This document shows positions 4,319-64,000 of a DNA stretch of 64,000 nt, in pieces. The notes under the pieces are model-generated. The model had not been told where the DNA came from, made no database searches, and saw only the letters and a list, made by a program, of their open reading frames with translations. The stretch's first letter is position 1. Each line of letters opens with the position of its first letter. Source of the stretch: a bacterium (GTDB taxonomy: Bacteria; Patescibacteriota; Patescibacteriia; Patescibacteriales; GWE2-39-37); assembly GCA_037146995.1 (NCBI GenBank), contig JBAWWA010000002.1, positions 1,955-65,954 on the forward strand. Reading direction: 5' to 3'. A program made the position numbers and the translations under genes.

Positions 4319-5794
4319 TTATATTTTAGCTTTAGCTAAATGAAAATTTGTAACTTTTTGATACTGATGACCGACTTGTAATAATTTATTCTCATCAAAC
4401 CTCGAACCAATTAACTGGAAAGCAAGAGGCAATTGTTTGCCATCAATCTCTGAAAAACCGCATGGTACTGACATAGCTGGTAGCCCGGCCAATGATGGGC
4501 TAGTAACGAAGATGTCCTCCAAATACATCTTGAGCGGGTCATTGGCCTGCTCACCAATCTTAAAGGCTGGATGAGGCGAAACTGGCGTCAACAACAAATC
4601 AACTTCCCTAAGTACCTGATCCAATTCTTCTTTAATTATAGTCCTAACTCTCTGGGCTTGCAAATAATAAGCATCAAAATAGCCCGCAGACAAAGCATAA
4701 GTACCAAGCATAATTCTTCGCTTTGCCTCTTCACCAAAACCCCGCCCGCGAGTCCTGTTATAAACGTCCTGCAAATTCTTTTCCTCGAGGTAAGTAGAAA
4801 AGCCATAACGGATACCGTCATGACGAGCTAGGTTTGAACTTAACTCTGATGGCGTCAAGATATAATAAACTGGCACAGCGTATTTAGTATGCGACAATTT
4901 AACTGACACAAATTCTGCGCCCAATTGCTTTAACTGTTCGATTGCCCGATTAACCGCTTGCGTTACCGACTCAGCAGTACCATCCGTAAAATATTCCTCA
5001 GGTAAACCGATTTTAAGTCCCTTAATACTATTACCCAGATTTTCGTTATAATTAACAATTTTTTCATCAACTGTTGTGGCATCAAATTTATCCAAGCCAG
5101 AAATGGCTTTCTGTACCGTCGCCACATCTTCAACCGTTTTGCATAAGGCACCTGGCACATCAGTCGAGCTAGTCATTGAGACCAAACCAAATCTTGAACT
5201 GCGACCATAAGTCGGTTTTAAACCAACCACACCACAAAAAGCGGCTGGACAGCGAATAGAGCCACCCGTATCGGTACCCAAGGCAAACAAACACATATCG
5301 GCAGCTACGGCGGCAGCCGAGCCACCTGATGAACCACCAGGGACACGCGCTAAATCCCAGGGATTATGAGTTACTCCAAAGGCGCTATTTTCTGTGGAGG
5401 CGCCATGAGCAAATTCATCAAGATTAACTTTGCCAAGCAGCACCGCCCCCGCCTCGCGCAATTTTTTAACGACAGTGGCGTCATAAGGTGCAATATAATT
5501 TTCAAGCATTTTTGAACTAGCCGTAGTTTTTATGCCACTGGTCAAAATATTATCCTTGCACAAATATGGAATACCTAGCAGTTCTCCCTTTTCGCCTTGA
5601 GCACGGCGCTCATCTGCTCTAACCGCTTCGGTCAAAGCCTCAGTTTCACACACCGTCAAGCAAGCGTGAATCATGGGATCAACCTCTTTTATCCGCAACA
5701 AACAAGCCTGAGTCAATTCAAGCGAAGTTATTTCGCCTTGTTCCAATTTTAATCGCGCCTCTCTTATTGTTAATTCGTTTAATTTCATACTCAA
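4319..5794 (-). CDS. gatA: Glu-tRNA(Gln)/Asp-tRNA(Asn) amidotransferase subunit A
   Basis: Amidase signature GGSSGGSAAAVA with Ser-cisSer-Lys triad context. 491 aa. Immediately downstream of gatC. Confidence 0.9.
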   Translation of the reverse strand: MSMKLNELTIREARLKLEQGEITSLELTQACLLRIKEVDPMIHACLTVCETEALTEAVRADERRAQGEKGELLGIPYLCKDNILTSGIKTTASSKMLENYIAPYDATVVKKLREAGAVLLGKVNLDEFAHGASTENSAFGVTHNPWDLARVPGGSSGGSAAAVAADMCLFALGTDTGGSIRCPAAFCGVVGLKPTYGRSSRFGLVSMTSSTDVPGALCKTVEDVATVQKAISGLDKFDATTVDEKIVNYNENLGNSIKGLKIGLPEEYFTDGTAESVTQAVNRAIEQLKQLGAEFVSVKLSHTKYAVPVYYILTPSELSSNLARHDGIRYGFSTYLEEKNLQDVYNRTRGRGFGEEAKRRIMLGTYALSAGYFDAYYLQAQRVRTIIKEELDQVLREVDLLLTPVSPHPAFKIGEQANDPLKMYLEDIFVTSPSLAGLPAMSVPCGFSEIDGKQLPLAFQLIGSRFDENKLLQVGHQYQKVTNFHLAKAKI

Positions 5795-53583: not shown

Positions 53584-53892
53584 CTAAATGCCACAGATTT
53601 TTTGACTTGGAAAAACAAGGTCTATGCACTCGCTAAACTCATCACCAAACCACCACACATCAGATACGGTAATAAAAGCCAGTCTCAGAGCGGAGCCGCT
53701 AACCGGAATTATCGCCGAGACCTCCTCCATTGTGGGACTGACAATACTCCTGAGCGATTCACTTTTTTCAAGTCTAGCTTCCATAAGATGCATCCACAAG
53801 GTTGAAAAATAATAACACTTGCAGACCTCCAAAGTATCGGCATCAAAATCATTTAAACAATTTTCATACAAGTCCTTGTTGCGGATCCTCAT
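53584..53892 (-). CDS. hypothetical protein (102 aa)
   Basis: ORF with its own terminator. No recognised family. Confidence 0.4.
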   Translation of the reverse strand: MRIRNKDLYENCLNDFDADTLEVCKCYYFSTLWMHLMEARLEKSESLRSIVSPTMEEVSAIIPVSGSALRLAFITVSDVWWFGDEFSECIDLVFPSQKICGI

Positions 53893-56171: not shown

Positions 56172-56200
56172 TAAAAAAAACGCGGTTATTAAAACCGCGC
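56172..56200 (-). terminator. rho-independent terminator downstream of the gamma-CA-like gene
   Basis: On the minus strand: GCGCGGTT-ttaat-AACCGCG followed by TTTTTTTT. Confidence 0.55.
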
Positions 56201-56374
56201 TAACTACTTGTTTATTTTCGCTCATGACAATTGGCAAAAAAATTACAGAGCCTATTAAAAGGTTCCTCGATGAATTTAGCCACAAAAGCCATGATGTCAT
56301 CAAAAAACTCCAAATAGCACCAGACGCCACCAAGAAGCATTAACATTGCCACTGCAGACATAATCGCCTCCATA

Positions 56375-57181
56375 CTAGCGCACCTCGATAGTTTTATTTA
56401 GGGCCATGGCCATTTCCTTCATGCAACGCAGGGCCATGTCAAATTGCTCCTCTGGTGTCAGATTCTTGGCCATGTTTACGGCTTTGTGATGTTCTAAGTC
56501 ATGTTGACGCCGCTTGTAGAGAGCGCACAACTGCTTGTTTTCATCCACAACACTTTTATTCAGGTCATTGTCTGCCTCGGCAATATCCCTCGGCACATGC
56601 GGCAGCCTGTCAGCTGTTTCTTGGTTATTGACCACCCAGCCATCAGGCACGAGGCGATGATTGTCAATCCTGACATTTGCCACAACGGCGTTAATGCCGA
56701 TATGACAATAATCACCAACGGTGGCTTTTTTCACCACCGCACCATGATCAAGCATACAATTACGCCCAATCGTGGAGTGATGAACAATGACATTAAAGCC
56801 GATAAAACATTTTTTACCCAGATAAGCCGGACCATGAATGGTTGCCTTGTGAGCAACTGAACAATGTTTGCCGACCCAGACGCAATACTTTTTGCCGTCG
56901 TCTCCGTCGACAAAAAGGCCTCCATGCGCATGAACCAAGGTGTGATCTTGAAAGTTGACACCCTCAGAAATTCTCACCCCACCGTAATTTTCATCGTTAA
57001 GATAGACATCTTTTACCTCGTCGATGCGAATAACCGTGTCGGGCAAAATTGTCACTCGAGGCCCGATACTGATTTGACCAATGATAATCGCACTTTCACT
57101 TACAATGGCGCTCTTATCAATGGTCGGGTTGCCAAAAAAAGAATCGTTGAAACGAAACCTACCCGGTTTTCCTGCATCCAT
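56375..57181 (-). CDS. left-handed beta-helix (hexapeptide repeat) protein, gamma-carbonic-anhydrase-like, with C-terminal alpha-helical extension
   Basis: Hexapeptide repeats throughout. HAHGG and H-x4-HG (SVAHKATIHG) match gamma-CA zinc-ligand spacing. About 80-aa charged C-terminal tail. Confidence 0.6.
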   Translation of the reverse strand: MDAGKPGRFRFNDSFFGNPTIDKSAIVSESAIIIGQISIGPRVTILPDTVIRIDEVKDVYLNDENYGGVRISEGVNFQDHTLVHAHGGLFVDGDDGKKYCVWVGKHCSVAHKATIHGPAYLGKKCFIGFNVIVHHSTIGRNCMLDHGAVVKKATVGDYCHIGINAVVANVRIDNHRLVPDGWVVNNQETADRLPHVPRDIAEADNDLNKSVVDENKQLCALYKRRQHDLEHHKAVNMAKNLTPEEQFDMALRCMKEMAMALNKTIEVR

Positions 57182-57417
57182 GTTGCTCTCCTTTTTTACT
57201 GTAATTTATTACCGTTCAAATGTGAACGTCCTACTTTTTGTAAAGATCTCCTTTTGTAACAATTTATGATTATTGCATAAATACACATTTGTGTCAATAT
57301 TAGCCACTTTTAAACAATTTAGGTTCAAAAATATCCTAATTTATACAATATTCTTCAAGATACAACTATTATATGCTACTCCCTGTAATAATTACGTCAA
57401 GTGTATGGCGCAATAAC

Positions 57418-57446
57418 TTGACATTAATATATATTTGTGCTATATT
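57418..57446 (+). promoter_or_regulatory. near-consensus sigma70 promoter for small peptide gene
   Basis: TTGACA, 17-nt spacer, TATATT. 35 nt upstream of ATG 57481. Confidence 0.55.
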
Positions 57447-57480: not shown

Positions 57481-57564
57481 ATGAGTGGATATTTAATGTC
57501 CGTTGGCTTAGTCATACTTGTTATTGTTCTGTGGAACCTAATGGGCTATATCTTGCCCGAATAA
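57481..57564 (+). CDS. 27-aa hydrophobic single-TM peptide (MSGYLMSVGLVILVIVLWNLMGYILPE)
   Basis: Strong RBS AAAGGAGGGG 5 nt upstream. Promoter and terminator are both well formed. Not in the ORF track (below the size cut-off). Confidence 0.5.
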   Translation: MSGYLMSVGLVILVIVLWNLMGYILPE

Positions 57565-57589: not shown

Positions 57590-57616
57590 AGCCTCAATTC
57601 GTTGAGGCTTTTTTCT
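57590..57616 (+). terminator. rho-independent terminator after the small peptide gene
   Basis: AGCCTCAA-ttcg-TTGAGGCT then TTTTTC. Confidence 0.6.
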
Positions 57617-57632
57617 TTTAAAAAAATAAAAA

Positions 57633-57660
57633 AGAATCGATTTTAGTCGATTCTTTTTTC
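57633..57660. terminator. bidirectional terminator (also ends the complex-I-like operon on the minus strand)
   Basis: AAGAATCGA-ttttag-TCGATTCTT flanked by A-run and T-run. Lies 11 nt past the stop of the NuoCD-like gene. Confidence 0.6.
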
Positions 57661-57670
57661 TAAATATATT

Positions 57671-59224
57671 TTACATGTCAGTACCGGAATAACTCAGGTT
57701 AAGCGATTTGTTGCACAGCGGAAAGTCTGGTACGATATTGCCCGGACCGATGATGCCAAAGGTGGCCCAATTACAAAATGATGGATCACGCGGAAAACAA
57801 CGCTCAATCTGGCCGTTTCTTATTACTACAGCACAGAGAACTTCACCCCGCCATGACTCGGTTGCGCCAATAGCGTAACCATCTCTCGGTGTGCAATTAA
57901 CGCTATACTCACCGGTCGGCATTTGATCAATTAAAATATTAATGAGTCGCACTGTTTCGTTTAATTCATCTAGACGCGCCGTAAATCGCGCATGAACATC
58001 ACCAGCCGTTTTTACAACCACTTTAACCGGAAATTTCGCGTAAGCAGCGTGCGGAAAATCGCGCCGAACATCACGATCAACCCCGGAACTTCTAGCTGGC
58101 AATCCCAGTGCGCCAAAGGCCTTGGCCGCTTCCAATGGCAAAATTCCAGTTGTCTGCAAACGATCCATAAAACCTTCTGAGGACAAAGCAGTCGTTGTTA
58201 TTTCCTTGATCTCGGCAAAAGCCTCATTAACAACTAGCTTGATACGAGCCAACTCGGAGGTGGTAAAGCTTTTAGAAACACCCCCTGGCAAAATCAAACC
58301 TCGCCAAAATCGATTACCAAGCACTTCCTCTGACAAACGCATTAGACGTTCTTTGACTCGAAAACCATTGGCCGCAATAAAACTAAAGCCTGTGCCCATA
58401 CCGCCAATATTAGCAATGTCGTGAACATGCATCGTCAAGCGTTCAAGTTCAGCAACTAGCGTTCTTAAAATCAAGGCCAGTTCAGGCACATTAACGTTGG
58501 CAAGAATCTCTACGGCCTGACAATAGGCCAAAGCATTGGCAGCCGCCATATCACCAGACAAGCGCTCAATAAATTTCAAACCCTCAACCGGAGTTTTGCC
58601 TTCTAAAAGCTTCTCGACGCCTTTGTGAGTAAAGAAAAGCTTGCCCTCTAAAGTAATAATACGCTCGCCTGCCACATTAAATCTAAAATGACCAGGCTCA
58701 ATAATACCCGCATGAATCGGTCCGACTGGAATTTCAAAAATCCCCTCGCCTTTGACATGGCCCATCGGATATGGCTCATTGGCATGTTCAAGTTTTTTAT
58801 TCCAAATAAAATCTTTTCTTAATGGGTGAGTAGCATTAGGAATATTTTCATGATTAACCAAACGACGCAAATCTGGATGGCCATCCGGCACCACACCGAA
58901 CATGTCATGACTATAGCGTTCATACCAATGTGCGGCCATAATCGTCGCAGTAATCGACGGATAATGAGGGTGACTAGCACTCACCTCCGCACGCAGTTCG
59001 AGCCGCTCATGACTCTCGTCTAGACTAAATACTGCATGAACTGTGTAGCATTTTTTTTCAGCCCGTTCATCGGTCACAAACATTAACGATAATGGCAGGT
59101 CATATTCATTCACCAAAGCAGTCGCTATTTTAGCTATATCATCACTGTTAACCGTAACACAATATATGTTGGCCAGGAGTTCTGCCTTAAGTTGTAATTT
59201 TGACAAAATTTCTAAAGCTTTCAT
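57671..59224 (-). CDS. fused NuoC/NuoD-like (HycE-like) large-subunit homologue lacking all [NiFe]-binding cysteines
   Basis: N-terminal 30-kDa-subunit motif HWYERYSHDMFGVVPDGHPDLRRL. Large-subunit motifs GPIHAGIIEPGHFRF. The L1 site reads ERLSGDMAAANALAY (canonical R-x-C-G-x-C). The C-terminal L2 site reads NLSYSGTDM (canonical D-P-C-x-x-C-x-x-H/R). Confidence 0.8.
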   Translation of the reverse strand: MKALEILSKLQLKAELLANIYCVTVNSDDIAKIATALVNEYDLPLSLMFVTDERAEKKCYTVHAVFSLDESHERLELRAEVSASHPHYPSITATIMAAHWYERYSHDMFGVVPDGHPDLRRLVNHENIPNATHPLRKDFIWNKKLEHANEPYPMGHVKGEGIFEIPVGPIHAGIIEPGHFRFNVAGERIITLEGKLFFTHKGVEKLLEGKTPVEGLKFIERLSGDMAAANALAYCQAVEILANVNVPELALILRTLVAELERLTMHVHDIANIGGMGTGFSFIAANGFRVKERLMRLSEEVLGNRFWRGLILPGGVSKSFTTSELARIKLVVNEAFAEIKEITTTALSSEGFMDRLQTTGILPLEAAKAFGALGLPARSSGVDRDVRRDFPHAAYAKFPVKVVVKTAGDVHARFTARLDELNETVRLINILIDQMPTGEYSVNCTPRDGYAIGATESWRGEVLCAVVIRNGQIERCFPRDPSFCNWATFGIIGPGNIVPDFPLCNKSLNLSYSGTDM

Positions 59225-59231
59225 ATATTTT

Positions 59232-60692
59232 TTAACTTAAATTTTTTATAATATCAACCACGAAGCCAGTGCCACTTGACGATGTAAACCAAACACCCAA
59301 CAAGATAACTGCAATTATATGAACCAACATGACACTGTGAGTAATATTCCAGTGCTCTCGTGTCTCATTTAAATCAGTAGTATTTGCTTTTTCCAAAATC
59401 ATACCAATTGTCGTTCTTAGCATGCCAAAGGCAATAACACCAAGGGCAATGAAAACCGCGATTGACAGATACAAATGAGCTTTGATCATTGCCGAAAAGA
59501 GCGTAAATTCACTAACAAATAATATTGACGGTGGCATTGCCACAATAAAAATTATCCCGATTAAAAACAAAGAGCTCGTATAGGGCGCATACTTTAACAA
59601 GCCGCCAACTTTAGTTGTGTCAGTTGTTTTATAGCGCAACAGTATTTCACCAGCTCCAAAAAATAATCCAGATTTTATGATTGAATGACCAATCATATGG
59701 ATAACTGCAGCCATTACGCCGATAGGCGGCAAGGCCAAGCCTAGGGCAATCAAGCCCATGTGCTCAATACTTGAATAGGCGAGCATCCTTTTGTAATTCC
59801 TTTGCACGAGCAACATAAAGGCTGGTAATACGACCGACAAGATACCGAAAAATAAAAAGAATTTACCAGTCCATTCACTCCCGCCTATGGCCTGATTAGC
59901 AATCATTTGAAAACGAATAATCGCATACAAAGCCACGTTTAACAATATGCCAGAAAACAAGGCCGAGATTGGCGATGGCGCCTTGCTGTGGGCATCTGGT
60001 AGCCACGTATGGATTGGCGCGAAACCGACTTTAGCACCAAAACCCACAAAGATAAAAACAAAAGCCCATTTTACAAGCTCCGGCGACAAGGCGCTAGTAT
60101 TCTTCAATAAATCACTGATCAAAAAACTAACTGATTGATCTGCCCCAGCCTGCGATGTATAACCGAGTAAAAGTATGCCAATCAAACCTAAAGTAATACC
60201 AGTTGAGCAAATAATAATATATTTCCAAGCAGCCTCAAGTGATGAGCGCTTGCGATAAAGACCAACCAAGAAGGTCGAAGATAAAGTTGTTGCTTCTAGA
60301 GCCAACCACATAATCAAAGTATTATTAGTGACAACGACTAAAAACATTGCCATCACGAACAAAGGTAGCAAAGTGAAATATAATTTTAGATCATTGATTT
60401 TCACCTCTCCATCCTTAAATTCATGACCAATATAGCGCACACTAACAATAGTGGCACTTAAAGATAATAAAGCGATTAGACTAGCAATCAAGGCTCCGAA
60501 TCTATCCAAATAAAACCACTCAGTAATTAAAACCTCTGTGCCAAAAAATTGTGGTGAGACGAATAACCAAATTGTCAAAGCAGAAGCGATGGATACAGCA
60601 CCAGCCGACAAACGAATGATTTTTTCGTTTTTTTGCACCACAGCAAGAATGACTGCCAAACTAAAAAGTCCAAAGATAAATAAAATATTCAT
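59232..60692 (-). CDS. NuoN/NuoM/MrpD-family antiporter-like membrane subunit
   Basis: 14 TM helices. Hallmark ...GFAPIHTWLPDAHSKAPSPISAL. Confidence 0.85.
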   Translation of the reverse strand: MNILFIFGLFSLAVILAVVQKNEKIIRLSAGAVSIASALTIWLFVSPQFFGTEVLITEWFYLDRFGALIASLIALLSLSATIVSVRYIGHEFKDGEVKINDLKLYFTLLPLFVMAMFLVVVTNNTLIMWLALEATTLSSTFLVGLYRKRSSLEAAWKYIIICSTGITLGLIGILLLGYTSQAGADQSVSFLISDLLKNTSALSPELVKWAFVFIFVGFGAKVGFAPIHTWLPDAHSKAPSPISALFSGILLNVALYAIIRFQMIANQAIGGSEWTGKFFLFFGILSVVLPAFMLLVQRNYKRMLAYSSIEHMGLIALGLALPPIGVMAAVIHMIGHSIIKSGLFFGAGEILLRYKTTDTTKVGGLLKYAPYTSSLFLIGIIFIVAMPPSILFVSEFTLFSAMIKAHLYLSIAVFIALGVIAFGMLRTTIGMILEKANTTDLNETREHWNITHSVMLVHIIAVILLGVWFTSSSGTGFVVDIIKNLS

Positions 60693-60693
60693 A

Positions 60694-62289
60694 TTATTCG
60701 GTTAAATTTCTCAATTCCTCGGTATCCACTGAACCGTAAAAATACTTAATTCGTGAACCAAGAAGCGAAAGAATTAAAGCTGTTAAAGCGGTGACGGTAA
60801 AAACACCCATCTCAATTATTAACGGCAATGACTTGACTGTCACAAGCGTAAATATGGCGATACCATTTTCAACAACAAGCAGACCGATAATTTGAGAAAA
60901 AACATTTCTATGGACAATCATAGTGGCAAGACCCAAAACTAGCAGCCCAACTGAAGCAAACAATAAACTACTCCACTCAACCAAGGCAAAAATTGGCGTC
61001 TTTTGAACAATAAAAAATACAAAGACTAAAAGTAGCGCTGCCAAAAGATAGCTTGAAGCCGGTCTCAAGAAAGACTGTAAATTCGCCGTATGTCGCTGTT
61101 GTTTTTCCATTATCTTAATAACGTATGGCACTAACAGGACTTTTACGGCGATCGTTACAACAGCGAAAATCAATAAATGAGTCTGCTCTTCTGGGGCCAT
61201 TAAGGCAAGACTATAGGCAATGCCTGCAATCATTAATGATGAGGCTGCATAATATCTAAGTATTGATTTCAATCTTAACCGACCGAAGAGTAACACCACA
61301 AAGAAAACCGACATAGCAGCAAAGACAGTATAATATTTTATATCAGGTCCGGTAAGTTTGACATATACAGCCACCATCATGCCAAAAAAAGCCGTAAAAA
61401 AAGCCAAGGATAAATATTCAGGCATCCTATAAAACCTCATTTTAACTATGGTCATTTCTAACCAACCCAGCAAGACGGCAACCATAGAAACCTTAAGGAT
61501 TGCCAAAAGTATAGCCAAAATACCACCACCGACACTAAGACTAAAAATCGTTACAGGCGGAAAAACAAAATTCGCAATTAAAATTGAAAAGGCTGCTAAT
61601 TTTATTGCCGAAGCGTATTCTAGCAAGGCCAAATAGCGACCAGAATATTCAAGAATCATGGCCTCATGAACCATAGTTAACTCAAGATGCGTTGCCGGAT
61701 TATCAACAGGATAACGTGCATTTTCAGCCAGTGAGACCAAGACAAAGGCAATCATTAAAATTATCAAATGCGGGGCACTAAAAATTAAAGACTGCGCAAA
61801 CATACCATCAAGCTGAAAAGAGCCTGTCACAAAAGCTAAAGCACCAAATATCAAAATAACAGTTGGCTCAATCAACGAGGCCAGAGTCATTTCACGCGAT
61901 GAGCCCATGCCCCCAAAAGCGCTAGCGGAATCTAGACCGCCCAAAACCAAAAAGATCGAGCCAACAATCATAAAGGCTGCTACCACCAAAAAATCACTAG
62001 CGAAAGCCAAGGCACCACCACTAAAAACTAAGGGCAATATAAAAGCCAAGGCTATTGTCGAGGCTAGTACCACAAAAGGTACGGCCCTAAAAACCCAAGA
62101 AGTGGATTTTGAGATAACCATTTCTTTCTTGAGTAAAGTCAAGATCGTATAATAGGGCAAAAATGGCGAAGCTCCGCGTCTGCCCTGCAATCGAGCCTTG
62201 GTAAACCTAACCAGACCGACAGAAAATGGTGCTACCAACAATATGGTCAGGCCTTGCAATATTGTAGCTAAAATTTGAAATGAGTTCAT
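60694..62289 (-). CDS. NuoH/HycD-like membrane subunit fused to a C-terminal ~200-aa polytopic extension (HyfE/NuoK-like?)
   Basis: N-terminal LLVAPFSVGLVRFTKARLQGRRGASPFLPYYTIL matches the NuoH/HycD signature. Total 531 aa versus about 310-330 for NuoH. C-terminal third has about 6 extra TM helices. Confidence 0.7.
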   Translation of the reverse strand: MNSFQILATILQGLTILLVAPFSVGLVRFTKARLQGRRGASPFLPYYTILTLLKKEMVISKSTSWVFRAVPFVVLASTIALAFILPLVFSGGALAFASDFLVVAAFMIVGSIFLVLGGLDSASAFGGMGSSREMTLASLIEPTVILIFGALAFVTGSFQLDGMFAQSLIFSAPHLIILMIAFVLVSLAENARYPVDNPATHLELTMVHEAMILEYSGRYLALLEYASAIKLAAFSILIANFVFPPVTIFSLSVGGGILAILLAILKVSMVAVLLGWLEMTIVKMRFYRMPEYLSLAFFTAFFGMMVAVYVKLTGPDIKYYTVFAAMSVFFVVLLFGRLRLKSILRYYAASSLMIAGIAYSLALMAPEEQTHLLIFAVVTIAVKVLLVPYVIKIMEKQQRHTANLQSFLRPASSYLLAALLLVFVFFIVQKTPIFALVEWSSLLFASVGLLVLGLATMIVHRNVFSQIIGLLVVENGIAIFTLVTVKSLPLIIEMGVFTVTALTALILSLLGSRIKYFYGSVDTEELRNLTE

Positions 62290-64000
62290 AAAGCGATACT
62301 TAAAGCAACAATTAAGGTTGCCAATAACAAAAGTAAATAATACTGAATCCTGCCGCTTTGGATTAATTTAACTCTAAGCGATAAAAAATTCATAAATTTC
62401 TCAATGGGCAGATACACGCTACTCTTCCAGGCAGAACTAATTAAAAGCGAAAATGAATAATTACGAATCCAGGGATTAGTGACCACAACTGGCTCGCTAG
62501 TAATTAATTTGTTTCTGCCAATTAAATTGAGGAAAAAAAATCTGATCGGCGCCGAAAAAGCGGCTGCTGTATATTCCATAGTTGAATTTATCGGCTGTCC
62601 GCAATCCCAGGTATGATATGAACGCTCTTTTTTATTTAGCGCAAAGAAGTAATTCAAAAGATAGGCAAATAGTAAAAAACCTAAAACGACGGACAATAGT
62701 TGCATAGATGATATAGAGCCAATGGCATTTTCCGTAATCAATTCAGAACTATTTAATACATTGGAAATAATGCTAATAAAATAATTTGCAAAAATACCAA
62801 TACTTAAAACACCAAGTGCTAATCCGGCAATCGGCCAAACTAAAAGTCCATCACCTAACTCAGACTTTATTTCATGCTCACGATACCTTGGCAAGCCCAG
62901 CATAGAAATAGCAAAAATCTTGATCATCGCAAAAACAGCTAAACCCCCGATCAAACCGATTACTGATAAAATTAGAACCACAATTGGCAATAGCATGCCA
63001 CCGGCTTGAGACATTAAACTAATAGCCACATGAATCAAGCCCCATTCGCCATAAAAAGTACCGAACGGCGGAATTGGTAACGAACCCATAATAACCAGTA
63101 AAAAGAAAAAAGAAAATAAAGGTAAAGACTTCGCAAAGCCACCCATAAGCTCTAGACTGCGAGAATGGACACGACTAATGACTAAACCACTCGAAAGGAA
63201 TAGGGCCGTCTTAAAGAAGGCATGACTCAAACTATGAATGATAGCAAAAACAATCAAGGGAATAAAATATCTCATTAAATTTGAATGAGCATAGTTTGCT
63301 GTAATATAAATTGCCAAGCCAATAACAGAAAATATAATTCCCATATTTTCAATACTGCTATAGGCAAAAGCCTTTTTCATGTCAGTTTCAATTGCCGCAT
63401 AAAGTGCGCCGACAACACCGGACACAAGCCCAAGAATGATCACCAAGGTGCCAGCCCAGGTTGGCATGTAGGCAAAATTCAAGACCACCATCAAGAAACC
63501 ATAAATCGCCACTTTTAACATCAAGCCAGACATAAGAGCGGAAATATTGCTTGGAGCCTGTGGATGTGCTTCTGGCAACCAAACATGGAGTGGAACAAGT
63601 CCAGCCTTTGAACCAAATCCAAATAAAAACAAACAAAAGGCAGCAGTAGCCAAAGTTGGCGTCAACTGCTGTGTCACTTCTTGAATCATTGATAAATCAA
63701 AAAACAAGGAGCCATTTCCCAATATTAAAAAACCACCTAATATCGCCGAAGCTCCGAGGTGGGTCATAATGAAATACAAGAATGCTGCGTTGAAAGACTC
63801 TTTAGTCTTGTCTGACAATACCAAAAAGAAAGAACTTAGAGACATTACCTCCCAAAAAAACAAGAAAGTAAATGAGTTGTTGGCAAGCAATACTGCCTGC
63901 ATACCAAAAACAAACAATCCCATTAAAAATTGGGTTGTGTATTTGTTATAAGTTTTTTGATACAGATCAAGATATCTAACACTATAAACGCCAACCAAAG
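62286..64000 (-). CDS. NuoL/MrpA/HycC-family antiporter-like subunit (N-terminus lies beyond window end)
   Basis: Hallmark GLVPLHVWLPEAHPQAPSNISAL. ATGA overlap with the next gene. ORF runs to the window edge. Confidence 0.8.
   Translation of the reverse strand, partial: LVGVYSVRYLDLYQKTYNKYTTQFLMGLFVFGMQAVLLANNSFTFLFFWEVMSLSSFFLVLSDKTKESFNAAFLYFIMTHLGASAILGGFLILGNGSLFFDLSMIQEVTQQLTPTLATAAFCLFLFGFGSKAGLVPLHVWLPEAHPQAPSNISALMSGLMLKVAIYGFLMVVLNFAYMPTWAGTLVIILGLVSGVVGALYAAIETDMKKAFAYSSIENMGIIFSVIGLAIYITANYAHSNLMRYFIPLIVFAIIHSLSHAFFKTALFLSSGLVISRVHSRSLELMGGFAKSLPLFSFFFLLVIMGSLPIPPFGTFYGEWGLIHVAISLMSQAGGMLLPIVVLILSVIGLIGGLAVFAMIKIFAISMLGLPRYREHEIKSELGDGLLVWPIAGLALGVLSIGIFANYFISIISNVLNSSELITENAIGSISSMQLLSVVLGFLLFAYLLNYFFALNKKERSYHTWDCGQPINSTMEYTAAAFSAPIRFFFLNLIGRNKLITSEPVVVTNPWIRNYSFSLLISSAWKSSVYLPIEKFMNFLSLRVKLIQSGRIQYYLLLLLATLIVALSIAL

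Follow-up and report, generated by a model that had tools for sequence, protein, structure and literature searches.

An apparent Cam/CcmM-class gamma-carbonic anhydrase encoded next to an Ehr-type complex-I-like operon in a Patescibacteria bacterium

The gamma-carbonic anhydrase gene and its local signals

The analysed stretch of DNA (the window, 64,000 nucleotides) carries on its minus strand, at 56375..57181, an unbroken open reading frame of 268 codons, whose ATG is preceded by an AAGGAG Shine-Dalgarno sequence about 8 nt upstream. It is a real gene, and its 268-aa product, which has no signal peptide, appears to be a Cam/CcmM-class gamma-carbonic anhydrase (gamma-CA). A sigma-70-like promoter (57269..57297, minus strand; TTGACA-17-AATAAT, TG-extended, 11 of 12 matches) is found 88 bp upstream of the start codon. 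On the other side, a 53-aa ORF (56212..56373, minus strand), which encodes a hydrophobic, transmembrane-like N-terminal segment, has its ATG only 1 nt past the gamma-CA stop codon (TAG-n-ATG), suggesting translational coupling of the two genes. The 53-aa peptide could be a membrane partner of the carbonic anhydrase (CA); its sequence is not conserved. Downstream of this pair, a terminator-like hairpin with a T-run (56179..56201, minus strand) would end the gamma-CA/53-aa unit ahead of groES.

In the 490 bp between the gamma-CA gene and the hydrogenase-like genes there are hairpins resembling terminators, sites resembling promoters and an opposite-strand 27-aa ORF. One of these hairpins (57628..57659, minus strand; 13-bp stem plus T-run) lies directly 3' of the NuoCD-like gene. 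An Rfam scan of the 490-bp gap and its flanks returned only sub-threshold chance matches. With a promoter-like site of its own, and set apart by the hairpins and the opposite-strand ORF, the gamma-CA gene is unlikely to be co-transcribed with the complex genes in the present genome. The sequence-only reading had described the gene as lying next downstream of the complex-I-like genes, with a small peptide gene and terminators in between, which agrees with the arrangement found. It had also placed the gene at the distal end of the operon, and this has to be corrected, since simple signals mark a separate transcription unit.

Enzyme class and predicted active site

The 268-aa protein matches Pfam Hexapep (6.6e-13), and its best full-length PDB sequence matches are Cam of Methanosarcina thermophila (1e-23; the alignment spans residues 18-224) and CcmM (6e-23). 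According to NCBIfam, it is related to the CcmM-domain (3.6e-39) and "carbonic anhydrase" (2.4e-35) models. The scores of 122.2 and 134.9 bits are below the equivalog cut-offs of NF040597 (380) and NF053794 (550), so the protein is regarded as a divergent relative rather than an equivalog. An AF2 monomer model of moderate confidence (pLDDT 69) contains short strands across residues 32-168 and helices at 198-239 and 243-260, and the top 16 Foldseek matches of this model are all Cam/CcmM, with weak E values. Like Cam and the CcmM N-terminal domain, the protein combines a left-handed beta-helix with a C-terminal helix, and by analogy with Cam it should assemble as a homotrimer whose subunit interfaces hold the metal sites.

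The H...H-x4-HG pattern, from which zinc ligation had first been proposed together with the hexapeptide fold, corresponds to H84, H111 and H116-G117. These three histidines (Cam H81, H117 and H122) are invariant in alignments of 13 and 20 sequences, and the proposal is borne out by them and by the Cam/CcmM matches. In the multiple alignment, R52, D54, E55, Q78 and N215 (Cam R59, D61, E62, Q75 and N202) are invariant as well, while N76 and D79, the equivalents of Cam Asn73 and Asp76, are nearly invariant. In a pairwise phmmer alignment the first histidine (Cam H81) seemed to be replaced by Gln, which is an artefact of a 10-12-aa insert; in the multiple alignment NFQDHTLVH pairs with Cam NVQDGVVLH. 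Alignment with Cam thus recovers all three ligands and the catalytic residues, with the exception of the acidic loop carrying the proton shuttle Glu84 (Cam ETINEEGEPIEDN), which is deleted in the clade of this protein and leaves G87 at the aligned position. It is speculated that H86 of an H-x-H motif may replace Glu84 in this role. Apart from the missing loop, the protein differs from Cam/CcmM in having neither a signal peptide nor RbcS-like repeats, and in three lineage-specific additions, namely a 10-aa insert at ~59-68, one more beta-helix turn at ~144-160 and 44 further residues at the C-terminus (225-268). Taken at sequence level, it is apparently a cytoplasmic enzyme, predicted to be catalytically competent.

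The sequence-only reading had named an acetyltransferase subfamily as the competing identity; a hexapeptide-repeat acyltransferase of the PaaY/LpxA/SAT-like type is barely credible. Weak partial matches to LpxD, NeuD, GlmU and PaaY do exist (50-130 residues, E values of 1e-10 to 1e-3). They are limited to the generic repeat region, those to LpxD, NeuD, GlmU and others covering mostly 50-80 residues and that to PaaY spanning 19-151, and they fall far below the family cut-offs (40 bits against 207 for the best LpxD subfamily, and 30.7 bits against 319.6 for PaaY). No acyltransferase family gave a full-length match above its cut-off, while the best full-length matches are Cam/CcmM and the CA-specific ligands are invariant, so that the carbonic anhydrase identity stands.

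A non-catalytic structural or assembly subunit, similar to the CAL-type proteins of plant complex I, would be in keeping with the absence of the Cam Glu84 proton-shuttle loop and with scores under the NCBIfam equivalog cut-offs. We consider it very improbable, as the three His ligands and the R/D/E/Q/N/D/N residues are conserved and the protein is much nearer to the active Cam/CcmM enzymes than to the mitochondrial subunits. Indeed, the mitochondrial gamma-CA/CAL subunits match at E values of 1e-7 to 3e-2 over partial lengths, compared with 1e-23 over the full length for Cam, and PDB sequence matches do not place the protein in the mitochondrial/CamH-like subgroup. The parallel with plant gamma-CA/CAL (~1e-7) that had been drawn for this gene therefore gives way to the Cam/CcmM subclass (~1e-23), and the comparison with plant complex I is one of analogy, not orthology.

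The Ehr-type operon and its flanking genes in relatives

The neighbouring operon has the order X334-NuoB-NuoL-NuoH-NuoM-NuoCD, and four of its genes lie in the window, all on the minus strand. They encode a fused NuoC-NuoD/HycE-like large subunit (57671..59224, 517 aa) without both NiFe-binding Cys pairs, an antiporter-like subunit of the NuoM/N or MbhH type (59232..60692, 486 aa), a NuoH-like subunit with a weak NuoK-like C-terminal part (60694..62289, 531 aa), and a NuoL-like antiporter subunit (62286..64000), which is cut at the window end and reaches 661 aa where it is complete, in locus L001. Upstream of NuoL and outside the window follow a NuoB-like gene without FeS cysteines, the gene of a 334-aa "CSDGR...HxxCGAA" protein, a GGDEF gene and atpC. 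The operon proteins contain NADHdh and Proton_antipo_M domains, and HycE is the best PDB match of the NuoCD-like protein (4e-66), which supports the original description of the operon as hydrogenase- or complex-I-like.

In the NuoCD-like protein both Cys pairs are replaced, as are all four FeS-cluster cysteines of the NuoB-like protein in the alignment to MbhJ/HycG, and the module has no ferredoxin subunit. With all NiFe and FeS cysteines lost and no ferredoxin subunit, the module looks redox-dead. The antiporter-like subunit retains a Glu and two Lys aligned with MbhH, which we take to be those of TM5, TM7 and TM12. By its predicted gene content, namely large and small subunits lacking the NiFe cysteines together with NuoH-like and antiporter-like proteins, the operon agrees with the definition of the Ehr complex (PMC7304191) and is an Ehr-type complex-I/group-4-hydrogenase relative of a CPR/Patescibacteria bacterium. 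Previous work described the CPR Ehr clade as related to group-4 hydrogenases, devoid of the metal-binding cysteines and monophyletic in CPR, and concluded that these versions "likely cannot interact with H2" (PMC7304191). The role of Ehr was given as unknown (PMC7304191; bioRxiv 10.1101/765248). An association with a carbonic anhydrase or ATP synthase is absent from these two accounts, and no Ehr/CPR-carbonic anhydrase link was found in the literature searched.

Eighty related loci, most of them from CPR bacteria, share the NuoB-L-H-M-CD core, which is directly preceded by F-ATPase genes in about 32-37 of them. The gamma-CA gene is directly downstream of the core in just five of the roughly 80 loci (L001, L007, L012, L021 and L036), so the pairing of these particular genes, whose conservation in related genomes the sequence-only reading had proposed to check, recurs in a few relatives only. 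The flanking slots of other loci are occupied by carbonic anhydrases of other classes. Family F4, with invariant C/D/R/H/C residues, matches CsoSCA structures by profile (~1e-11), and family F10 matches Pfam Pro_CA_2 (1e-12 to 3e-15); a gamma-CA, CsoSCA-like or Pro_CA_2 gene is directly beside the core in at least 25 loci. The CA type switches between adjacent tips of the NuoCD tree. In L082, L083 and L085, the frame, which consists of the atp operon, X, the core, a CsoSCA-like gene, a small ORF and groES, is identical to that of the gamma-CA locus except for the CA class.

Two further flanking families were considered. The 334-aa protein encoded 5' of NuoB (family X) has an invariant CSDGR...H-x-x-CGAA motif, and a beta-CA identity was rejected for it: nothing matched in Pfam, in the PDB by sequence or profile, or in Foldseek with a family member's pLDDT-92 model, and hhalign probabilities against F4, F6 and F10 did not exceed 13%. 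Family X is therefore taken as CA-like at the motif level only. Family F6, which carries C-x-D and H-x-x-CG motifs and gave no meaningful Pfam match in two members (L025 and L003), is possibly CA-like, likewise at the level of motifs. No DabA or CupA family turned up when the gamma-CA, X334 and members representing F4, F6 and F10 were scanned against Pfam.

The gene might instead encode a stand-alone housekeeping cytoplasmic CA, which provides bicarbonate for carboxylations or buffers pH and has come by chance, and without a functional tie to the complex, to lie in a variable intergenic region between the Ehr operon and groESL; no partner complex is needed for an ordinary CA to benefit a cell. 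Such an enzyme would fit the gene's own promoter-like site and terminator, the intervening opposite-strand gene, the presence of the gamma-CA/complex pair in five loci only, and the unrelated gene context of a distant archaeal homologue (P0003). It would also fit the loci that lack an adjacent CA, which amount to about half and include all 12 Acidobacteriota loci; no partner gene recurred consistently next to the Acidobacteriota loci or some of the Uhrbacteria loci. We nevertheless regard chance placement as unlikely, if still worth keeping in mind, because at least three unrelated CA classes occupy the core-flanking slots in the 25 or more loci and alternate between close relatives, and because in L082 and L085 a CsoSCA-like gene replaces the gamma-CA within the same frame. 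Moreover, of the 162 genes that lie no more than 900 bp from the core, 35 are CA-like, compared with none of the 443 genes farther out, a count that ignores phylogeny and uses families defined from the same flanks.

Alternatively, the CA-like genes may serve the F-type ATPase or envelope pH and ion homeostasis, with the Ehr module acting as a separate Mrp-like cation antiporter. This would account for the atp operon directly upstream in the 32-37 loci mentioned above, and for L084, where an X-family gene follows atpGDC without an Ehr core; in addition, a gene for a DUF4349 membrane protein occurs 3' of the CA-like gene whether or not the core is there. We judge it improbable, as L084 is the single core-less example seen, and the gamma-CA, F10 and many F4 genes come immediately after NuoCD, with the core between them and the atp genes.

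Possible coupling of CO2 hydration to ion flow

The recurrence of carbonic anhydrases of several classes beside the core argues for functional coupling between the CA and the module. We moderately favour a reading in which CO2/bicarbonate conversion by the CA in the recurrent slot is coupled by the module to ion flow. Transmembrane movement of H+ or Na+ by the module would be coupled to the reaction CO2 + H2O <-> HCO3- + H+ catalyzed by the adjacent CA, and module and CA together would constitute a vectorial carbonic anhydrase, with DabAB and the cyanobacterial NDH-1MS/CupA as its analogues. Such a system might be powered by, or feed, the ion gradient of the F-type ATPase, whose genes are immediately upstream in many relatives. 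The favoured direction would be gradient-driven CO2 hydration with bicarbonate trapped in the cell. We infer that the CA is physically bound to the complex, and likewise the energy coupling and the direction of the reaction. The link to the complex-I-like genes, which had been called suggestive at the outset, is thus strengthened by the CAs of other classes that fill the flanking slot in many relatives, although not in the way then proposed.

More tentatively, the CPR Ehr module in general may be a redox-independent machine with an interchangeable CA partner (gamma, CsoSCA-like beta or Pro_CA_2), in which CO2/HCO3- conversion is coupled to H+ or Na+ with the adjacent F-ATPase. One variant would be an inorganic-carbon trap driven by ATP or the proton motive force, and a more radical variant would be an ion pump driven by CO2 hydration, which in fermentative ultra-small bacteria devoid of respiration could help to energise the membrane. 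To our knowledge, CPR bacteria have no respiratory chains to go with their F-ATPase and this large membrane complex; the class-swapping placement of CAs beside the complex offers a concrete hypothesis for Ehr function. If it is true, a function could be assigned to Ehr complexes, the complex-I scaffold would prove re-usable without redox chemistry, and a third architecture would be added to the vectorial carbonic anhydrases. It would also provide a bacterial precedent for the mitochondrial gamma-CA/complex-I partnership and have a bearing on why mitochondrial complex I binds gamma-CAs.

Several known systems resemble the proposed one in part. Plant and protist mitochondrial complex I with its gamma-CA/CAL subunits (for example PDB 7aqq, 6x89 and 7tgh) likewise brings the gamma-CA fold together with a complex-I-type machine, but its subunits are only distantly similar in sequence (E values of about 1e-6 to 1e-7), and in the present case a redox-dead Ehr module takes the place of respiratory complex I and the association is one of gene adjacency. 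The DAB systems (DabA/DabB, MpsAB) also have a CA-type gene beside one or more complex-I-type antiporter-like subunits and no redox module (PMC13144422; bioRxiv 10.64898/2026.05.01.722082), and the concept of ion-gradient-coupled CO2 hydration is shared with the role proposed here. They differ in consisting of two or three subunits with a dedicated beta-CA-like DabA, compared with the five-gene NuoB-L-H-M-CD core and its interchangeable CA genes. NDH-1MS and NDH-1MS', with CupA and CupB, carry a CO2-hydrating subunit on a complex-I-like machine (bioRxiv 10.64898/2026.08.03.742399). Unlike the present module, in which the FeS and NiFe ligands are all lost, they are redox-driven, from ferredoxin to plastoquinone, and CupA of NDH-1MS has no homology to gamma- or beta-CA.

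Finally, the charged C-terminus of the gamma-CA had been proposed to be an extension of about 80 aa that could dock to a partner complex, as in plant complex I. Its helical character is supported by the two helices of the AF2 model, while its length has to be reduced: residues ~195-224 align with the ordinary C-terminal helix of Cam (~30 aa), so the true extension is 44 aa. A role as a conserved docking element was ruled out, since three of the four syntenic orthologues, those of L007, L012 and L036, are 201-204 aa long and have no counterpart of residues 225-268, and in the fourth, from L021, the corresponding part is unrelated. Compared by eye, the C-termini of the gamma-CA, F4, F10 and X proteins had no motif in common. 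Both the 44-aa tail and the 53-aa hydrophobic peptide are lineage-specific, and they would serve as local aids to attachment at most. In L002 and L085, too, a small hydrophobic ORF (45 and 35 aa, respectively) is present 3' of the CA-like gene.

The gamma-carbonic anhydrase

The gamma-CA gene (56375..57181, minus strand) is an uninterrupted ORF of 268 codons with an AAGGAG ribosome-binding site about 8 nt 5' of its ATG, and no signal peptide is evident from sequence at the N-terminus. Its product matches Pfam hexapeptide repeats (6.6e-13). In NCBIfam it scores best against the CcmM gamma-CA domain (3.6e-39), followed by 'carbonic anhydrase' NF040597 (2.4e-35), each far under its equivalog cut-off. 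Among solved structures, the top matches are full-length gamma-CAs, including a designed Cam-like protein, M. thermophila Cam (~1e-23) and CcmM (6e-23), while plant and protist complex-I gamma-CA subunits, YrdA and PaaY-like proteins match far more weakly (1e-7 to 1e-3). These matches, the repeats and the intact ORF confirm the sequence-only reading of a gamma-CA-type hexapeptide-repeat protein. An acyltransferase identity is very unlikely, as the model scores are far under the cut-offs and most models cover just 50-80 residues of generic repeat.

In a 13-sequence alignment, which includes Cam, the four orthologues from syntenic loci and the nearest relatives in the database, NFQDHTLVH of gamma-CA pairs with NVQDGVVLH of Cam, and the Gln suggested as first His ligand by pairwise alignment with Cam proved to be an artefact of a lineage-specific insert. 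Residues R52, D54, E55, Q78, H84, H111, H116 and N215 are invariant, also when the alignment was repeated with 20 other sequences, and correspond in order to R59, D61, E62, Q75, H81, H117, H122 and N202 in verified Cam numbering; the expected His ligands (H84, H111 and H116) are thus all present. The acidic loop carrying the proton-shuttle Glu84 of Cam is deleted throughout the clade to which this protein belongs. At the sequence level, assignment to the Cam subclass with intact active-site residues is secure, and the gene, taken alone, adds a new and divergent member to an already established enzyme class. As well, three homologues of ~820 aa (P0008, P0009 and P0016) each match gamma-CA in three separate stretches and could be single-chain 'pseudo-trimeric' gamma-CAs.

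The alignment with Cam extends to residue 224 and takes in Cam's ordinary C-terminal helix, so the true extension comprises 44 residues (225-268) rather than the ~80 proposed earlier. Helices are predicted at 198-239 and 243-260 (AlphaFold2; pLDDT 69 overall, 80-92 in the beta-helix core). The 16 best Foldseek matches of this model are all Cam or CcmM, with weak scores. The idea that the tail serves in docking is weakened because it is lineage-specific, and the comparison with plant complex I becomes an analogy, since gamma-CA is Cam-type rather than mitochondrial-type.

The Ehr-like operon and nearby transcription signals

On the organism's own contigs (L001 and L086), the gene order is atpC, a GGDEF protein, the 334-aa protein X334, NuoB-, NuoL-, NuoH-, NuoM/N- and NuoCD-like genes and, after 490 bp, gamma-CA, a 53-aa ORF, groES and groEL. 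The GGDEF-domain (diguanylate cyclase) gene, an insertion that separates atpC from the X334/Ehr genes here, lies outside the window (L086:270-1340). The NuoCD-like protein is nearest to the FHL large subunit HycE (4e-66), and its NiFe cysteines are replaced, both N-terminal and both C-terminal, while the NuoB-like protein aligns to MbhJ and HycG with all four [4Fe-4S] cysteines replaced. An antiporter-like subunit retains a Glu and two Lys that align with MbhH, which we take to lie in TM5, TM7 and TM12. Genes for a ferredoxin-type subunit (NuoI/HycF) and for NuoEFG are missing from the operon. The hydrogenase-like character noted earlier is borne out, and the operon matches the CPR clade of 'Ehr' complexes, which is monophyletic, lacks metal-binding cysteines and is 'likely' unable to interact with H2 (Jaffe et al., PMC7304191). 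The role of Ehr complexes has been stated as unknown (bioRxiv 10.1101/765248).

Simple consensus scans place a terminator-like hairpin directly 3' of NuoCD (57659..57628, minus), a strong promoter-like site 88 bp 5' of gamma-CA (57297..57269, minus), a terminator 3' of the 53-aa ORF (56201..56179, minus) and a further minus-strand promoter-like site before groES. The NuoCD/gamma-CA gap, in which Rfam gave nothing credible, holds a plus-strand 27-aa hydrophobic ORF, MSGYLMSVGLVILVIVLWNLMGYILPE (57481..57564), with a strong AGGAGG ribosome-binding site, a sigma-70-like promoter (57418..57446, plus) and a terminator-like hairpin (57590..57609, plus); it is probably a small membrane peptide gene, and the small gene and terminators noticed earlier are borne out. 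The 53-aa ORF (56212..56373, minus) begins one nucleotide past the stop codon of gamma-CA, which suggests translational coupling, and carries a TM-like segment near its N-terminus. From these signals and the opposite-strand ORF, gamma-CA and the 53-aa ORF probably form their own transcription unit in this genome. Such probable independence is evidence against coupling to the complex, and a free housekeeping CA is a serious, if rather unlikely, rival.

Conservation and carbonic-anhydrase-type genes in the flanking slots

A scan with the NuoCD-like protein (one genome per species) returned 80 loci, mostly from Patescibacteria/CPR (Moranii-, Uhr-, Parcu-, Falkow-, Peregrini- and Saccharibacteria) plus one clade of Acidobacteriota. 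The NuoB-L-H-M-CD core is identical in order across all intact loci, and atpA-G-D-C lie directly upstream in ~32-37 loci (upstream flanks of L002-L081), with an entire atp operon leading into the complex genes in L082 (2599-9992), which suggests a bioenergetic unit in these CPR. Eight MAGs labelled 'uncultured Gammaproteobacteria' (L002, L027, L042, L045, L047, L049, L053 and L063) carry the CPR-type operon, two of them (L002 and L049) also with atp genes directly upstream; these labels are probably taxonomic mis-assignments.

The strict gamma-CA/complex pair is not widely conserved, as a gamma-CA lies directly 3' of NuoCD in only five of the 80 loci (L001, L007, L012, L021 and L036). About half of the loci, including all from Acidobacteriota, have no adjacent CA. 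An extra beta-helix turn is common to gamma-CA and non-syntenic relatives and absent from the L007/L012/L036 group, to which gamma-CA is 42-44% identical versus 62-66% for NuoCD; a gamma-CA thus probably entered the slot on at least two occasions.

The slots directly 5' of NuoB or 3' of NuoCD repeatedly hold other CA-type genes. The profile of family F4 (~340-380 aa, 16 sequences) matches the carboxysome shell CA CsoSCA (2fgy, 8thm, 9skx) at ~1e-11 as well as other beta-CAs, with C, D, R, H and C invariant at the zinc site. Family F10 (~305-355 aa, six loci) hits Pfam Pro_CA_2 above threshold (1e-12 to 3e-15 in two members scanned); its top PDB matches are all beta-CAs, none significant. Families F6 and X share C-x-D(-x-R) and H-x-x-C-G motifs and are CA-like by motif only, with no tie to beta-CAs by profile or fold. 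Family X, directly upstream of NuoB, includes X334 (L001:39-1043, ~64831..65835 in window coordinates, outside the window) and its relatives P0154-P0162, with an invariant, beta-CA-like CSDGR...H-x-x-CGAA zinc signature. A model of P0158 (AF2 pLDDT 92) matched nothing in Pfam, PDB sequences or PDB folds, and the family could represent an undescribed fold or a metalloenzyme that has diverged very far.

Three loci found via family X (L082, L083 and L085) have exactly the frame seen here, atp - X - core - [CA] - small ORF - groES, with a CsoSCA-like gene in the gamma-CA position; L002 has one past a short opposite-strand ORF and followed by groEL, and L078 has Pro_CA_2, then groES and groEL. The CA-like gene is followed by small hydrophobic ORFs, not homologous to the 53-aa one, in L002 (13219..13356, 45 aa) and L085 (10891..10998, 35 aa), and by a 67-aa soluble ORF in L082; the hydrophobic ORFs and the 53-aa hydrophobic peptide are alternative, weak candidates for membrane attachment. 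On a neighbour-joining tree of NuoCD proteins, CA class alternates across adjacent tips (L007 gamma, L008 Pro_CA_2, L010 CsoSCA-like, L012 gamma, L019 Pro_CA_2, L040 CsoSCA-like), which argues for repeated in-place replacement. Among genes of at least 150 aa, with families defined from these same flanks, 35 of the 162 lying no more than 900 bp from the core are CA-like, versus none of the 443 more distant ones in those loci (Fisher p ~5e-22, uncorrected for common descent).

Possible coupling and further neighbouring genes

We infer a functional link between CA and complex from this non-orthologous displacement, in which CAs of differing kinds recur next to one apparently redox-dead, ion-translocating module. 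Its nearest working models are DabAB, where a beta-CA-like subunit sits on a NuoL-like proton conduit and CO2 hydration is unidirectional and PMF-driven (PMC13144422), and NDH-1MS/CupA, in which a complex-I scaffold carries a vectorial CA driven by redox chemistry (bioRxiv 10.64898/2026.08.03.742399). Drawing on the displacement and both models, we propose that the CPR Ehr module would couple H+/Na+ flux to CA chemistry, with the adjacent F-ATPase either generating or consuming that flux; such coupling seems somewhat favoured. No DabA or CupA homologue was seen among the flanking proteins scanned, and literature searches on this question turned up no published connection of carbonic anhydrases with Ehr complexes or CPR bacteria. 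If true, the arrangement as a whole would extend the known theme of a vectorial carbonic anhydrase on a complex-I-type scaffold to a new form and give the orphan Ehr complex a testable function.

In Moranbacteria-type loci, the CA-like gene 3' of NuoCD is regularly followed by family F5, a ~330-aa DUF4349 protein with one hydrophobic stretch after a basic N-terminus and another near the C-terminus (13 loci, e.g., L018:13180-14172). In L084, an X-family gene (4429-5229) lies 3' of atpG-atpD-atpC, with a DUF4349 membrane protein gene after it and no Ehr core, so this pair can exist without the complex. Finally, a 102-aa protein encoded just 3' of groEL (53584..53892, minus) matches Pfam Tad4 (type I Thoeris inhibitor, 4.2e-9), an anti-defence type of gene unexpected on a CPR chromosome.
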